The position numbers and the translations under genes were made by a program. This document shows, in pieces, positions 36,338 through 42,538 of a stretch of 64,000 nucleotides of DNA (position 1 is its first letter; the number at the start of each line of letters is the position of its first letter). The DNA is from a phage: the sequence record OM867527.1; one strand, 5' to 3'. Under the pieces are notes generated by a model. It saw only the letters and a list, made by a program, of their open reading frames with translations, was not told the DNA's origin and did not search any database.

Positions 36338-36574
36338 CTACTTACTATTTCCACCAAAGAAGCGTATCACACGTTCCTTTGCTTCATCCTGCTCCTTAAT
36401 GGCTACATAATCCCGTGCATAGTAATATGCACACCATAAGCCAAGAGTACATGCAGAGAAGCGAGCCACTACGAAGAACATCTCTTCCAGGCTCTGAGCA
36501 TTATGTAATGAAAATACAAATTCCAGAACCAGGATGATACTTATAATCATTGCTTGGATAGCTAGTTTTTTCAT
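36338..36574 (-). CDS. Small membrane protein (78 aa)
   Basis: Two hydrophobic helices (LAIQAMIISIILVLEFVF and FSACTLGLWCAYYYA). Confidence 0.4.
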   Translation of the reverse strand: MKKLAIQAMIISIILVLEFVFSLHNAQSLEEMFFVVARFSACTLGLWCAYYYARDYVAIKEQDEAKERVIRFFGGNSK

Positions 36575-37515
36575 TCAGTAATAGTCTCACCAGGAATTAA
36601 TTTACGGAATTGAATAAAGTGAAGCAGGTTACCTGAGTACAGTTTCCCTTCTTTATCCATGGATGTAACACCTTGTTCCCAGGTAACTGGGTTCATGTTA
36701 TTCACGTACTTCTCACCAAGATTCATAGGTGTAGCCTGATGTTCTGTTGGGGAAGCATGAATAGGTTGGTTTTCCACTAACTTAGCAAATAAGCCAAGGT
36801 CTTCTTCAATAGTAGATGGTCGTCCCTCAAAGTTGTTATAGGAAGCACGGGCACAGCGTGCAGCACTTACTTTGAGAAGTAGGCCATGCACTTCTGCATC
36901 ACTTGGTTCATCGCGTGTAATTCGATTACGTTTGCAGAAATTGTAAGCCCCAACACGGTCAATATGAGCAATATATGGCATATGCCATTGACCGTACGGT
37001 AATGCTCTTGGTGTGCTTTCTTCGTGTGCCTTACGCATTGCTTGAGCCAGTTCACGAATCTCTGGTTGTGCATCTTTGTGGTCACGCAGTCCATAGAAAT
37101 TAGCCCAGCTAGTCGAAGTTACCACTACACGGATGTGTGTGAATGGTTCCAGAATACGGTTAACAATCTGCTTATGTACTTGCCCACGACGCAGCTGTTC
37201 AGCATACACAGCAGCAGCAGATGCAGCGTTATCCCAGATAAACTTAGCATCCTCAATCTCCATAGGAGTGAGTTCTTCCTCTGCTTGCATACCTTTCTGG
37301 TTTTTACCCCAGTGACTTGGCATCACTGGTTCATTACGAACCTGTTCAATAAGCTTAGAGGTAGGAATAGCACGACTGCTTGAAGCATTACGGTTGAATA
37401 CACGGTGAGTCATAAACTCACTGTGGATGAATCGGGGATAAACCAATTCAAAGGTTGTGATACGAGTTCCTGTTTCTGGGTGAACGGAATCTGCAATTAC
37501 TGATGCCTTAATCAT
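36571..37515 (-). CDS. thyX: Flavin-dependent thymidylate synthase ThyX (putative)
   Basis: FMTHRVFNRNASSSRAIP fits the ThyX signature (R/T)HRx7SxR. Confidence 0.55.
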   Translation of the reverse strand: MIKASVIADSVHPETGTRITTFELVYPRFIHSEFMTHRVFNRNASSSRAIPTSKLIEQVRNEPVMPSHWGKNQKGMQAEEELTPMEIEDAKFIWDNAASAAAVYAEQLRRGQVHKQIVNRILEPFTHIRVVVTSTSWANFYGLRDHKDAQPEIRELAQAMRKAHEESTPRALPYGQWHMPYIAHIDRVGAYNFCKRNRITRDEPSDAEVHGLLLKVSAARCARASYNNFEGRPSTIEEDLGLFAKLVENQPIHASPTEHQATPMNLGEKYVNNMNPVTWEQGVTSMDKEGKLYSGNLLHFIQFRKLIPGETITE

Positions 37516-38370: not shown

Positions 38371-38398
38371 TTAAAAAAGCCCACGGGTTAGGTGGGCT
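38371..38398 (-). terminator. Rho-independent terminator (minus strand)
   Basis: Minus-strand reading: AAGCCCAC-CTAACCC-GTGGGCTT followed by TTTTTT. Confidence 0.55.
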
Positions 38399-38471
38399 TG
38401 GGTTAGGAGATGGATAAGCAATGAGCTGGAAGTAACTTCCAGAAGTACCCTCTTAGGGATACTTCGGTTAG

Positions 38472-38750
38472 TTACTCTGCTTTACTGCCACCATTGGTTT
38501 GTACAACAGTTACATTAGTAACCTGGTTCTGACCTTTGTTGGACAGTGACCAAATCAGTGCTACTACCCAGAATACTAGTGACCAGCCTAATACGATATT
38601 AAGCACACCAATGCCCCACTTAGAGGCATGGCCTCGTGAGAAAGCAATGATAGTAGGGATAAGGTATACAGCTAATATGAATAAGAAAACAAGGATTGCT
38701 GCTAAAGATTCCATGATGGTTCCTATGTGGGGTTGAGTTAGTTTCTTCAC
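38472..38750 (-). CDS. Superinfection-immunity-like two-TM membrane protein (T4 Imm-like family)
   Basis: Two TM helices with the pattern LIPTIIAFSRGH...VLNIVLGWSLVFWVVALIWS, matching the family signature as I recall it (PTIIA-x-R-x-H ... LGW ... ALIW). Confidence 0.55.
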   Translation of the reverse strand: MKKLTQPHIGTIMESLAAILVFLFILAVYLIPTIIAFSRGHASKWGIGVLNIVLGWSLVFWVVALIWSLSNKGQNQVTNVTVVQTNGGSKAE

Positions 38751-38997: not shown

Positions 38998-39006
38998 GTT
39001 GTTTCC

Positions 39007-39513
39007 TTATTTACTTTCTTTAGCTTTTACTGGTTTATCCGGTTGATTCATGTACTTGCCATTGTAATTAGCAGGTTCCTGAACCAGATGAAATAATACT
39101 TGAGCTATCCCAGCACCAGCCGGGATATGCAATTTCTTACGACCATGATAGACCAATTCAAGGGTAAGATATCCTTTCCATCCTGGTTCTATTACGGTAT
39201 TGAACACTGATAATGCGCGTCTTGCCCATGTAGACTTATCGTGAACGATAGCTACACAGGACGGAGACATGTTGAACTTCTCAATTGCTGAAGCCAATGT
39301 GAACTTACCGAAATGGTGTGATACTTGATTTCCATCAACGACTTTCACCATTGGAATCAACCCAAATAAGCGATAGAAGGTAATATCTTGTTTGATACGA
39401 ATATCATAACCAGCTTCCCCCAATCCATAGCTTACACCGTGTTCGGATACCTTACGGTCTGGAACATCCAGCAATTGGGATGAACGATATAGAGAATTAC
39501 CGTTAACAACCAT
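39007..39513 (-). CDS. dCTP deaminase/dUTPase-superfamily protein
   Basis: GYDIR and NTVIEPGWKGYLTLEL...GAGIAQVLF resemble the dCTP deaminase beta-barrel motifs. Confidence 0.5.
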   Translation of the reverse strand: MVVNGNSLYRSSQLLDVPDRKVSEHGVSYGLGEAGYDIRIKQDITFYRLFGLIPMVKVVDGNQVSHHFGKFTLASAIEKFNMSPSCVAIVHDKSTWARRALSVFNTVIEPGWKGYLTLELVYHGRKKLHIPAGAGIAQVLFHLVQEPANYNGKYMNQPDKPVKAKESK

Positions 39514-40721
39514 TATTTCATTCCTTTAGGGATATGAACTACCTCCCCAAAAGGTACGGTAGCATTAGGATTATTCAGAACACACCAGATGATAGGAATA
39601 TCAAATGGCAATTCTTCCATTGGACGAACATACATATCAGAGAATATGATTGCAGCGGTTGGCTTATTCTTAATAATCCACTCGCGTACTGGTTCTAGGT
39701 TTGTACCACCACGACCAGTAATCTTAATCTCTTCGAAAGTATCTTCTTCAGTGATGTCTATTTCTTCTTGAATAATATCGTCAAAGGTAATTAAGGACAT
39801 CTTCTTAGGATTGAACTGGCTCTTAACGTAGGCAACCTCTGAGTTAAAACGTAGAGAGTCAGCACTACTAATAGAACCAGATACATCTTCAAAGTAGGCT
39901 AAGTGTCGTAGACGTCCTTCATCATCTTCCAGTGAAGGTAGATAGATGTCAGTGTAACGACGGTTAGGTCTGGCCCACGTATAGTGAGTGTCATTAATGT
40001 CGGTAAAGAAGTTCATGAGAACTTCCTGCCATGGAACCACTGGCTTAAGGAATTGGGTAATAACCTCTTCCATACGACCAGCACCTTTACCGGGCATCTG
40101 TCCACCAGCCATCTTCTGGCTCTGCATTGCACGTACTACGTTGTTGACAACAGCACCCTGGGACTGCCCCGAAGTGGGGGATTTCATGTCGCCAGCAAGA
40201 CCTGCTCCAGCACCCCCCGACGGCTTCTGCCTTTTCTGGGGGTTCTTCATCAGGTCATCGTAGATGTCTTCTTCAACCCATCCTTTATATTGAGGGTCTT
40301 TGCAAATGCCTTCATCGATACCAGTGAACTTGTAACCATCCTCTTCTAACTGAAGGTTAATGAAGTGGTCACACGCCTGGTTCCAGACTTCTGGGTCACG
40401 GCTTCCACGACGAATGTCATGTAGATATGCCACATGCCATAGTTCATGCATTAATACTGTTTCTCTTGCATCTGGACACATCCAGATAAAGAAATCAGGG
40501 TTGAAATGGAGTTCTATCCCATCAGTACATGCAGTGGGGCAATCCTCACGTTTCCATGAGAATTTAAGGCTACACAGTAATGAACCAAAGAACGCAGCAC
40601 TGCGTCCTAGGAAAGCCTGAGCCTGAATACGGTCATACTCACGCATGAGTTGTTCATCACTAAGTGTGTGCTGAGGAAATTGGTTCATGTTGTGATTATC
40701 CGTGAATGTAACGAGAGACAT
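39513..40721 (-). CDS. VWA-like domain protein with HExxH-like metallopeptidase-type motif
   Basis: LMHELWHVAYLHD (HExxH) in the N-terminal half; overlaps the upstream AAA+ gene by 26 nt, implying co-translation. Domain identity is from recollection of the VWA/DUF2201-type family; needs an HMM check. Confidence 0.45.
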   Translation of the reverse strand: MSLVTFTDNHNMNQFPQHTLSDEQLMREYDRIQAQAFLGRSAAFFGSLLCSLKFSWKREDCPTACTDGIELHFNPDFFIWMCPDARETVLMHELWHVAYLHDIRRGSRDPEVWNQACDHFINLQLEEDGYKFTGIDEGICKDPQYKGWVEEDIYDDLMKNPQKRQKPSGGAGAGLAGDMKSPTSGQSQGAVVNNVVRAMQSQKMAGGQMPGKGAGRMEEVITQFLKPVVPWQEVLMNFFTDINDTHYTWARPNRRYTDIYLPSLEDDEGRLRHLAYFEDVSGSISSADSLRFNSEVAYVKSQFNPKKMSLITFDDIIQEEIDITEEDTFEEIKITGRGGTNLEPVREWIIKNKPTAAIIFSDMYVRPMEELPFDIPIIWCVLNNPNATVPFGEVVHIPKGMK

Positions 40722-41748
40722 TAGCAGCAGCCTTACGCCACTCAGGTGTAGCCTGAATTTCTGGTAATGCTCTGCCTACTGTGCGGAAGTACAGAATCTT
40801 ATGGGTGAACGTTTTAAAGCGTTCAATATACTGAAGAACACCAACAAAGTTCTCTTCAGTAGTTTTGTTAGCCAGATGGTTAACGGTAGCCCAACACAGG
40901 TTGTTATCTTCCGGTAGTGCACAGCCCAGTGGGTCTTTGACTACTTTCTCAATCGTAATGATACGATTATACACCTGAGTGAATTGAACAAACTCTGTAG
41001 CCTTACCGGCAGTAACGTGACCTGCATAATAGATAGAATCTTCATCAGGAAGAGCACCTTCTGGCAGGTTCTTGAGGTCTTTGTTAACAAAGTCCCAAGT
41101 ACGTGGACAACAGAACGTTTTGTTCTTATGAGCTGGGTCGAAGTCATGTAGATAGCCTGGATTAGCATGTAAGAATGCAACCAGACGTTCATCCCATTGT
41201 TGAGGAATCATTACGTCTTCAACAAAGATGTCGAAGTTAAGTTCCATTTCAAAATGAACCACACGAGACTGCATTGCAGTACCCAGAGGGTTAACAATGG
41301 CACGGTCAGTAGCTTTGTTACCAGCGCAGACAATCATCACATTGGGATGAAGTTTTTTCTGACCAGTCATACGGTCGAGAATCAGTTTGTATGCAGCAGC
41401 TACTACCTCTTTCTTAGCTGAGTTGAACTCATCAAGGAACAGGAGCCAGCCATTATACCCTTCTGGTACTTCATCCCCTTCAATGGGGAATAAGTCAGCG
41501 AATGGAATAAACTCTGCACGGTCACCATTACGGAATGGTAAGCCAGACAGGTCTTCCGGGGCAGAAGTAGACAGACGATGGTCTATCAGCTTCATACCAA
41601 ATTCTTCTGCAATAGAACGAATGATTGCAGATTTACCCATGCCTGGTGATGAAGTCAGGAACGGTACGTTACCTGCTTTTAAGGCACGGATAATAAAGTT
41701 ACGAGCTTGACGTGAATTACATACGGTCAAGGAGTCAATGCTTGCCAT
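40696..41748 (-). CDS. AAA+ ATPase, MoxR-like
   Basis: Walker A SSPGMGKSAII, Walker B LLFLDEFN, and size (350 aa) typical of MoxR-family ATPases. Confidence 0.55.
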   Translation of the reverse strand: MASIDSLTVCNSRQARNFIIRALKAGNVPFLTSSPGMGKSAIIRSIAEEFGMKLIDHRLSTSAPEDLSGLPFRNGDRAEFIPFADLFPIEGDEVPEGYNGWLLFLDEFNSAKKEVVAAAYKLILDRMTGQKKLHPNVMIVCAGNKATDRAIVNPLGTAMQSRVVHFEMELNFDIFVEDVMIPQQWDERLVAFLHANPGYLHDFDPAHKNKTFCCPRTWDFVNKDLKNLPEGALPDEDSIYYAGHVTAGKATEFVQFTQVYNRIITIEKVVKDPLGCALPEDNNLCWATVNHLANKTTEENFVGVLQYIERFKTFTHKILYFRTVGRALPEIQATPEWRKAAANVSRYIHG

Positions 41749-41782
41749 TTACTTACTCTCCTAAAGCTAATGGGATTACTAA

Positions 41783-42112
41783 TTAAGATTTAGTGCAGGG
41801 GTATGCCTTGTGTACTGAGTACGCAACAATTTGAGATGTATTCTTCATCTTGAGGATTGCAGAGTCATAAATAACTACTTTGGCAATCTTAGGCAGAATG
41901 ACTGAATACTTAATACCTTCAGGAACACAGTTATTTGTGCTCTCGATGTAAGAGATCATACTGCCCATGAAGAATCCCTGTCCGAACGCATCACGGGTGT
42001 CATCCAGGTAAGCCTGAGCACCCTCCAGAATAGGTTCTGGTTCAATTGCTTGTGCATTTGGGGTCAAAGCTATCAGTGCAGCTACTGCAATACCTTTAAG
42101 TAAAGTTTTCAT
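41783..42112 (-). CDS. Exported small protein with N-terminal signal peptide (periplasmic, putative)
   Basis: MKTLLKGIAVAALIALTPNAQA then mature region with two Cys; classic n-h-c signal peptide ending AQA. Confidence 0.45.
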   Translation of the reverse strand: MKTLLKGIAVAALIALTPNAQAIEPEPILEGAQAYLDDTRDAFGQGFFMGSMISYIESTNNCVPEGIKYSVILPKIAKVVIYDSAILKMKNTSQIVAYSVHKAYPCTKS

Positions 42113-42298
42113 TTAGTTACCTTTCATTTCATTGAGTTTAAGTACACCGATAGGGGTTAATGACCACCCAAGACCAGTATTGAACTGTACTAAGCCCAGC
42201 TTCTTAAGAGACTGTGCGGTTTTGTTATTACGGTTGCTGGTGGCAGAGCCACCTTGAACCATGCGAAGGAAGATTGCTTGGGATTGGGTTAATTTCAT
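42113..42298 (-). CDS. Hypothetical small protein (61 aa)
   Basis: Start overlaps the upstream stop. Confidence 0.35.
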   Translation of the reverse strand: MKLTQSQAIFLRMVQGGSATSNRNNKTAQSLKKLGLVQFNTGLGWSLTPIGVLKLNEMKGN

Positions 42299-42508: not shown

Positions 42509-42538
42509 AAAAAAAGACCTCCTTTCAATAAGGAGGTC
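42509..42538 (-). terminator. Rho-independent terminator (minus strand)
   Basis: Minus-strand reading: GACCTCC-loop-GGAGGTC followed by TTTTTTT. Confidence 0.5.

Follow-up and report, generated by a model that had tools for sequence, protein, structure and literature searches.

Phage HK2 carries the N4-like core pair gp24/gp25, a MoxR-type AAA+ ATPase and a partner with a VWA domain and a putative zincin-like domain

Two neighbouring genes in the 64,000-nt stretch of DNA of the N4-like coliphage HK2 analysed here (sequence record OM867527.1; the window, to whose minus strand all coordinates below refer) are the already catalogued Schitoviridae core pair gp24/gp25, by both orthology and synteny. 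The first gene (40696..41748), preceded on direct reading by the Shine-Dalgarno sequence AGGAGA (41757..41762) 8 nt 5' of its ATG, encodes a 350-aa AAA+ ATPase that is 62% identical over its full length to N4 gp24. The second (39513..40688), encoding 391 aa from its conserved start, specifies the partner, which combines a zincin-like domain with a VWA domain and shares 61% full-length identity with N4 gp25. Both N4 genes are middle transcripts and belong to the published set of 14 genes that make up the N4-like core (PMC4193335); conservation across this group is what an earlier note on this DNA had suggested checking. The pair is thus already known and the finding is ordinary in kind; its function is the genuine question.

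In HK2 the two genes are part of the early/middle strand. They share a block with a dCTP deaminase gene (39007..39513), whose ATG overlaps the stop codon of the partner by 1 nt (TAATG), and ThyX, rIIA/B and RNAPII genes are close by. Gene order and neighbours are the same in N4, where RNAPII genes precede the pair and dCTP deaminase, ThyX and rIIA/B follow it, although gp24 and gp25 are separated there by 167 nt, compared with 7 nt in HK2. Terminator-like hairpins, each a consensus match only, are found upstream (42516..42538) and downstream (38377..38399) of the gene block.

Judging by its motifs, the ATPase is a catalytically competent AAA+ protein of the MoxR/AAA_5 type (the dynein-midasin-CbbQ/NorQ group). 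The 350-aa reading frame and the Walker A sequence SSPGMGKSAII described in the earlier note are both present, and G38 and K39 of its PGMGKSA core (41626..41646) are kept in all 77 homologues. In the Walker B motif LLFLDE (41428..41445), D106 is likewise invariant, while E107 is found in 73 of 77 and is replaced by D in the four plasmid homologues. Sensor-1 residue N144 (77/77) ends a β-hairpin predicted by the AF2 model (residues 131–144, strands 131–133 and 137–144; 41317..41358). R162 in the motif QSRV (41263..41265; 77/77) is a candidate arginine finger, a role that we take from analogy with the MoxR xxRF motif, and R216 in CCPRTW (41101..41103; 76/77) is a candidate sensor-2 arginine, so that with these two candidates the AAA+ catalytic set is complete. 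Residues 60–100 (41449..41571), a putative helix-2-insert region between β2 and β3 that contains the motif STSAPEDLSG, include P64, D66, G69, P71, F80, F83, P88 and G100 among many invariant residues, with D66 and G69 kept in 77/77. The insert of about 40 residues after β2 is conserved but is modelled with low confidence (pLDDT 50–70, compared with 87 for the ATPase model); by analogy with NorQ, residues 60–100 may form a pore or a partner contact.

Placement in the MoxR group rests mainly on the fold and on profile evidence from the whole family, because the HK2 ATPase by itself scores below the AAA_5 threshold (17.7 bits against a cut-off of 22; E = 0.0038), with only the generic AAA family above it (7e-06). 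Among 54 homologues, AAA_5 is matched by 49 (E ≤ 1; best 9e-06), AAA_3 by 11 and bpMoxR, weakly and below threshold, by 12 (E ≤ 1). The nearest solved folds – NorQ, CbbQ2, CbbQ, dynein and midasin – are all members of the MoxR/AAA_5 group, and a PDB sequence search with the ATPase returned a single match, the midasin AAA module. Fold and family-wide profiles support the proposed MoxR assignment. The protein also matches PHROG 1297 (‘ATPase’) at 1e-132; NCBIfam gave no match for the ATPase or the partner. A CobS/CobT identity was rejected, as CobS-specific families do not match the ATPase.

The partner had been described as a 402-aa protein with an HExxH motif and a VWA-like C-terminal region. 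Motif and region are there, and the length applies only to the longest open reading frame (39513..40721), the conserved start giving 391 aa. Pfam assigns the protein to DUF2201_N (PF13203; 8e-57) and DUF2201 (2e-34), the former at 193 bits against a cut-off of 23.2 and with matches in 55/55 homologues. Residues 17–253 (39930..40640), which Pfam treats as a putative metallopeptidase domain, are predicted from this profile match and from the HExxH motif to be zincin-like. In that motif, HELWH (40434..40448), H81 and E82 are kept in 90 of 93 homologues and H85 in 92; H90 is kept in 90/93, and D107 of a C106-D107 motif (40368..40373), a candidate further metal or catalytic ligand, in 92/93. One homologue, P0206, carries an intein immediately 5' of the CD motif; inteins and homing endonucleases are also inserted in gp24/gp25-type genes of several relatives.

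Between the domains lies the linker WARPNRRYTDIYLP (residues 238–251; 39936..39977), in which R243, R244 and P251 are each found in 92/93 homologues. Residues 230–257, spanning it, are modelled at pLDDT < 50, and the linker may contact the ATPase. The C-terminal half adopts a VWA (Rossmann-like) fold (residues 263–386; 39531..39902) with a complete MIDAS: the motif DVSGS (DxSxS; 39873..39887), which aligns with DGSGS of integrin alpha-X, is joined by T329 (39702–39704) and D351 (39636–39638), and D268, S270, S272, T329 and D351 are identical in 93/93 homologues, including members from jumbo phages, Vequintavirus and plasmids. Together with the DUF2201_N and DUF2201 matches, this confirms the VWA/DUF2201 character suggested for the partner. 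PDB sequence searches with the partner, as a single sequence and as a profile, found no solved relative, a search of the literature on DUF2201/COG3864 found no functional work, and the CRISPRi-ART paper mentions neither phage N4 nor gp24, vWA or MoxR.

The junction between the two genes does not support the translational coupling that the earlier note had drawn from a 26-nt overlap. Such an overlap is indeed seen between the longest reading frames, but it is not a conserved feature; it is an artefact that arises because the longest frame was taken. The upstream ATG (40721) is specific to HK2 and results from a codon change at the ATPase C-terminus, where HK2 reads AANVSRYIHG and its relatives AANISRYIHG; those whose partner proteins are 96–99% identical read ATA or ACA at this position. 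GenBank and nearly all homologue gene calls use the ATG at 40688. In the resulting junction (40686..40698), the ATPase stop TAA (40698–40696) is followed by a 7-nt spacer and the conserved partner ATG (40688–40686; MNQ...). This spacer and a weak Shine-Dalgarno sequence still allow coupling by termination-reinitiation in HK2, an arrangement that is not kept across the family: in 68 related loci, the distance from the ATPase stop to the start of the aligned region of the partner ranges from −65 to about 2950 nt, and no junction that has a clear start codon is tighter than a 1-nt start/stop overlap. Subject to this correction and to the AAA_5 score given above, the reading of the genes as a MoxR-VWA pair holds.

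The association itself extends well beyond N4-like phages, with the pair also found in Vequintavirinae, other large phages and conjugative megaplasmids. Among 74 loci with enough flanking sequence, the ATPase gene lies upstream of the partner on the same strand in 68. Searches by tblastn with both HK2 proteins recovered homologues of the K64-1 and RaK2 type, and in jumbo phage K64-1 the two genes are adjacent; on Burkholderia, Cupriavidus and Variovorax plasmids the ATPase gene, whose product matches the phage profile at 9e-48, lies two genes upstream of the partner. A scan of genome contigs returned N4-like sequences only and found no independent cellular homologues. No conserved third component was found, since the reading frames between ATPase and partner form lineage-specific clusters without mutual similarity or a family match (213–242 aa in 18 loci, 295–311 aa in 5 loci), with a DUF3150-type protein on the plasmids. 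In Vequintavirus, the gene that precedes the partner encodes an HNH-type endonuclease (PHROG 3118) with no relation to the ATPase.

We consider it probable that the two proteins form a two-component, ATP-driven machine, targeted through the MIDAS, that remodels and cleaves one protein substrate. The ATPase would assemble into a hexameric ring and, if NorQ-NorD, CbbQ-CbbO and Rea1 are a guide, the partner would dock on or into it through its VWA domain and its conserved RPNRR linker. On the same analogy, the MIDAS site would hold one particular target protein by an acidic residue, and ATP hydrolysis would remodel either the target or the partner such that the zincin domain can cut the target. 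Cryo-EM work on NorQD serves as the mechanistic template (PMC13036017). For the target, the weakest step of this proposal, we lean towards an intracellular protein rather than strictly a virion protein, because conjugative plasmids carry the pair as well.

A further reading, which we offer tentatively, is that the pair may not be a virion chaperone at all but a machine common to mobile elements, to lytic phages as much as to conjugative megaplasmids. While the incoming element establishes itself or replicates in a new cell, the pair would recognise through the MIDAS, and then cut, a protein that is either conserved in bacteria or transferred along with the element. Such a target could be a host factor for replication, the nucleoid or defence, or else a large protein that accompanies the DNA, for instance the virion RNA polymerase of N4 or a substrate of a T4SS. 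ATPase residues 60–100 and the RPNRR linker of the partner, the two most conserved segments for which no confident model was obtained, would form the ring-adaptor interface.

We regard it as unlikely that the pair is a chaperone for virion assembly that also processes structural proteins by proteolysis. Such a role has been proposed for the matching architecture in group 2.2 jumbo phages, on the model of p618/p892 in tail development of Acidianus two-tailed virus (ATV) (PMC7824862), and it agrees with the K64-1 pair adjoining annotated virion structural genes and with a second structural module near gp24/gp25 homologues in roseophages (PMC4193335). A Hoc-like head-decoration gene also lies about 1 kb upstream of the HK2 pair on the same strand, which shows that this region is not free of structural genes. 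However, homologous modules are present on conjugative and on non-mobilizable megaplasmids, where no virion is built; the genes are distant from the portal, capsid and terminase block; and the middle transcription of the N4 pair, as well as the absence of both gp24 and gp25 from the virion protein lists quoted in PMC4193335, argue in the same direction.

Less likely still, and in our view improbable, is that the pair acts as an enzyme activase or metal-insertion chaperone (similar to NorQD, CbbQO or CobST) that matures a nearby enzyme of nucleotide metabolism, with HExxH binding a metal instead of serving in cleavage. This is exactly the role of its nearest solved relatives, NorQ and CbbQ (PMC13036017), and it would fit the coupling of the partner to dCTP deaminase through their 1-nt overlap, as well as the presence of ThyX or thymidylate synthase within a few kb of the pair in N4-like phages and K64-1. 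The deaminase gene, however, lies 3' of the partner in only 35 of 89 related loci, all from closer clades, and this linkage is absent in distant phages and plasmids; moreover, no family specific to CobS or CbbQ is matched by the ATPase, and the combination of HExxH with other invariant residues, in what Pfam describes as a metallopeptidase family, points to hydrolysis. Finally, the idea that the partner is a nuclease of the HNH type with no functional tie to the ATPase, which has in its favour the name of PHROG 1314 (‘HNH endonuclease’) and the repetition of this label in HK2, N4 RefSeq and many other records, is refuted by DUF2201_N and DUF2201 spanning the whole protein and by the VWA fold of its C-terminal half, with no HNH family matched in a Pfam scan (E ≤ 5) and the ATPase-partner gene order kept across unrelated phages and plasmids.

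gp24 and gp25 are among the few genes common to all N4-like phages. Identification of their substrate would supply a missing piece in the model of N4 infection and give the DUF2201 family its first function. We take the pair to have an important and general role for mobile DNA, because its catalytic and MIDAS residues are conserved, its genes are invaded by inteins and homing endonucleases, and it recurs in unrelated large phages and conjugative plasmids. The ‘HNH endonuclease’ label that so many records give to the partner is wrong, having been inherited through PHROG names, and needs correction in annotation pipelines.

Several known systems invite comparison. The vWA-MoxR-VMAP ternary conflict systems also combine MoxR with vWA, and in some of them the vWA component carries a fused peptidase (Kaur et al. 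2020, eLife 9:e52696); this identity was rejected here, as no VMAP or other third component is kept across lineages and bpMoxR remains below threshold. PADLOC gave noise-level matches only (DolB 0.0067, IetA 0.069), and the pair is therefore no catalogued defence system. NorQ and CbbQ, at about 255–267 aa, are about 15% identical to the phage ATPase, which in the AF2 model is extended at its C-terminus by a helical region of about 120 aa. Their partners NorD and CbbO, unlike that of HK2, lack a zincin domain, and the output of those pairs is metal insertion or inhibitor release rather than proteolysis. Rea1/Midasin unites AAA ring and MIDAS domain in one eukaryotic chain of six fused AAA modules, without a peptidase. 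A MoxR-VWA pair encoded by a virus is cited for ATV (p618, MoxR; p892, VWA; PMC7824862, PMC7159879); ATV is an archaeal virus whose pair lacks a peptidase domain and acts in extracellular tail development. Group 2.2 jumbo phages have a counterpart in their pair of a MoxR protein and a metallopeptidase-vWA protein (Iyer et al. 2021, Viruses 13:63; PMC7824862), for which the accessible part of that paper holds no link to N4-like phages that we could find. The jumbo-phage proteins are longer (444 and 461 aa) and only 24–30% identical to those of HK2, but they share its two-gene architecture.

The earlier note correctly identified the two genes as those of a MoxR-like AAA+ ATPase (350 aa, 40696–41748) and a partner with metallopeptidase and VWA features, both on the minus strand of a region (bases 39000–42200) that matches Escherichia phage HK2 (PP514361; Gamaleyavirus, Schitoviridae) at 100% identity and some 55 further G7C-like coliphages at 92–95%. 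Gene order is the same in N4, whose gp24 and gp25 share 62% and 61% identity with the ATPase and the partner, respectively; gp24 (“unknown”) and gp25 (“vWFA domain”) are both listed among the 14 genes that form the N4-like core (PMC4193335; see also PMC2784036). As a core module already catalogued for N4-like phages, the pair is ordinary as a finding, with a real and long-standing question about its function behind it; a literature search turned up no experiments on the two proteins.

Judged by its sequence, the ATPase is an active-looking member of the AAA_5/MoxR type. Pfam matched the HK2 protein to the generic AAA family (7e-06), with AAA_5 just under threshold, and among 54 homologues of 50–96% identity, AAA_5 was matched by 49, bpMoxR by 12 and AAA_3 by 11. 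The sole PDB relative found by sequence is an AAA module of midasin (3.6e-4). The catalytic set, consisting of K39 (Walker A), D106-E107 (Walker B), N144 (sensor-1), R162 and R216, is kept in 73–77 of 77 homologues, which take in jumbo-phage and plasmid members. The structure model has a β-hairpin ahead of sensor 1 and a helical extension formed by the last ~120 residues. A 40-residue insert past strand β2 (STSAPEDLSG...) is highly conserved but poorly modelled.

In the partner, both the MIDAS-VWA domain and the HExxH site are intact at the level of sequence: D268, S270, S272, T329 and D351 of the MIDAS are kept in 93/93 homologues, HExxH in 90–92/93 and D107 in 92/93. Inteins usually occupy highly conserved functional sites, and the position of one (Pfam PF14890) exactly before the C106-D107 motif in a metagenomic homologue, P0206, therefore fits this motif being important. 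Many records, including those of HK2, N4 (RefSeq) and K64-1, label the partner an ‘HNH endonuclease’ (window 39513–40688, minus strand; N4 gp25, locus L090, 2165–3307; K64-1 gp060, locus L096, 3438–4823). No HNH domain is present in the protein, which consists of DUF2201_N and DUF2201, and the label seems to go back to the way PHROG 1314 is named.

The junction between the genes differs from the translational coupling through a 26-nt overlap that had been proposed. Both ORFs are present as called (40696–41748, and 39513–40721 for the longest-ORF, 402-aa version of the partner), but the overlap is an artefact of an ATG at 40721 found only in HK2, which arises from an Ile-to-Val codon change at the ATPase C-terminus (aat gtc, giving aATGtc). 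In relatives with 96–99% identical partner proteins this position reads ATA or ACA, which leaves no start codon there; all of them share the ATG of MNQ..., 3–7 nt past the ATPase TAA. This start, used by GenBank and by nearly all gene calls of homologues (390–394 aa), places the partner at 39513–40688 (391 aa), with a spacer of 7 nt. Since the ATPase has a strong Shine-Dalgarno sequence (AGGAGA, 8 nt ahead of its ATG) whereas the partner has a weak GGA only, termination-reinitiation coupling is plausible in HK2. It is no family-wide property of the pair; where the ATPase precedes the partner on the same strand (68 loci), the distance to where the partner's alignment begins is ≤60 nt in 26, 60–1000 nt in 32 and >1 kb in 10, and in N4 167 nt separate the genes.

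The gene partnership itself is conserved. In tblastn searches of phage records the partner was found in 734 and the ATPase in 829, including Schitoviridae on many hosts, Vequintavirinae and RaK2/K64-1-type jumbo phages (the genes are adjacent in K64-1); Bacillus phage G and PA5oct have the partner only, and some cyanophages the ATPase only. Distant viral clades (~30% identity to the HK2 partner) carry a conserved 213–242 aa ORF between the two genes (~18 loci within L059–L089, e.g. L070, 3324–3986), and another distant clade a 295–311 aa ORF (L057, L058 and L062–L064, e.g. L062, 2974–3906); both gave no match in Pfam or PHROG and are unlike the middle gene of plasmid modules, and a search beside the pair for a third gene conserved across lineages found none. 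Selfish elements occur in homologues P0206, P0021, P0025 and P0048 and in phages PW8, Bp4, pSb-1, JA-1 and ZC08. In several phages the region matched by the ATPase has homing-endonuclease genes annotated in it, and in PW8 and JA-1 two ATPase features stand beside one such gene, which suggests that the ATPase gene is split in these two.

Plasmids carry the partner as well (107 records). Megaplasmids of Burkholderia, Cupriavidus and Variovorax have, in this order, the ATPase, a ~308-aa protein (annotated DUF3150 on the Cupriavidus plasmid) and the partner (betaproteobacterial loci L091, 4935–8197; L093, 5036–9137; L094, 5928–9152; L095, 5963–9251), and a profile of the phage ATPase picks up the plasmid ATPase at 9e-48. 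On two Burkholderia plasmids the module is immediately followed by a type IV secretion operon (virB-type T4SS genes), and on the Cupriavidus plasmid it is near a PRTRC cassette (PRTRC ThiF gene); the Burkholderia gladioli module is interrupted, between ATPase and middle gene, by a gene for the DNA polymerase III beta subunit. Two bacterial contigs hold the pair with dCTP deaminase and ThyX, one from Mesorhizobium yinganensis (contig2, L006; 727 kb, 434974–448110) and one a Roseococcus MAG contig that adds RNAPII subunits (L005; 297 kb). This synteny suggests either that N4-like proviruses are integrated there or that the assemblies are chimeric, and agrees with the lysogenic N4-like viruses reported in PMC10654107.

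In the window, genes for both RNA polymerase II subunits and for a Hoc-like decoration protein lie 5′ of the pair, and dCTP deaminase (39007–39513, minus strand), ThyX (36571–37515, minus strand) and rIIA/rIIB lie 3′. The partner stop and the start of dCTP deaminase have one base in common (TAATG), and ThyX follows within ~2 kb; perhaps by chance, a thymidylate synthase gene also lies ~2 kb 3′ of the pair in K64-1, an unrelated jumbo phage (L096, 6667–7596). Terminator-like hairpins, by consensus match only, flank the gene block at 42516–42538 and 38377–38399, and the last gene of this putative transcription block, right ahead of the latter hairpin, encodes a small protein with two TM segments (38472–38750, minus strand) that is annotated as ‘immunity to superinfection’. 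Directly upstream of the ATPase, a 109-aa ORF (41783–42112, minus strand) has a signal-peptide-like N-terminus (MKTLLKGIAVAALIALTPNAQA); it has no Pfam match, belongs to PHROG 11132 (function unknown) and is named ‘tai4 protein’ (T6SS amidase immunity protein) in one related record.

For group 2.2 jumbo phages, in which a MoxR ATPase and a vWA protein with an N-terminal metallopeptidase were already described, the two were proposed to serve virion assembly, including the proteolytic processing of structural proteins, by analogy with the MoxR-VWA pair of ATV (PMC7824862). Structural genes near the pair in K64-1 and in roseophages, and the head-decoration gene in the same region of HK2, argue for such a role. 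As a general explanation, however, it is opposed by the presence of the module on plasmids that build no virion, and by transcription of the pair as a middle gene: gp24 and gp25 are described as middle transcripts, and both are missing from the virion protein lists quoted in the same source (PMC4193335). Less likely is a part in metal insertion or enzyme activation tied to the nucleotide-metabolism genes next to the pair, since these are linked to it in some clades only.

At the molecular level, we favour remodelling-driven cleavage of a specific protein, a picture that we consider fairly probable by analogy. The partner would dock on a hexameric ring of the ATPase, its MIDAS site would bind an acidic residue of the target, and ATP-driven remodelling would then allow the zincin domain to cleave it. 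NorQ-NorD provides the template: in those structures a VWA finger reaches into the pore of the ring and touches the helix-2 inserts, and a linker in the VWA protein is remodelled by ATP hydrolysis (PMC13036017). NorQ/CbbQ chains (254–267 aa) are much shorter, with no room for the helical extension of the phage ATPase.
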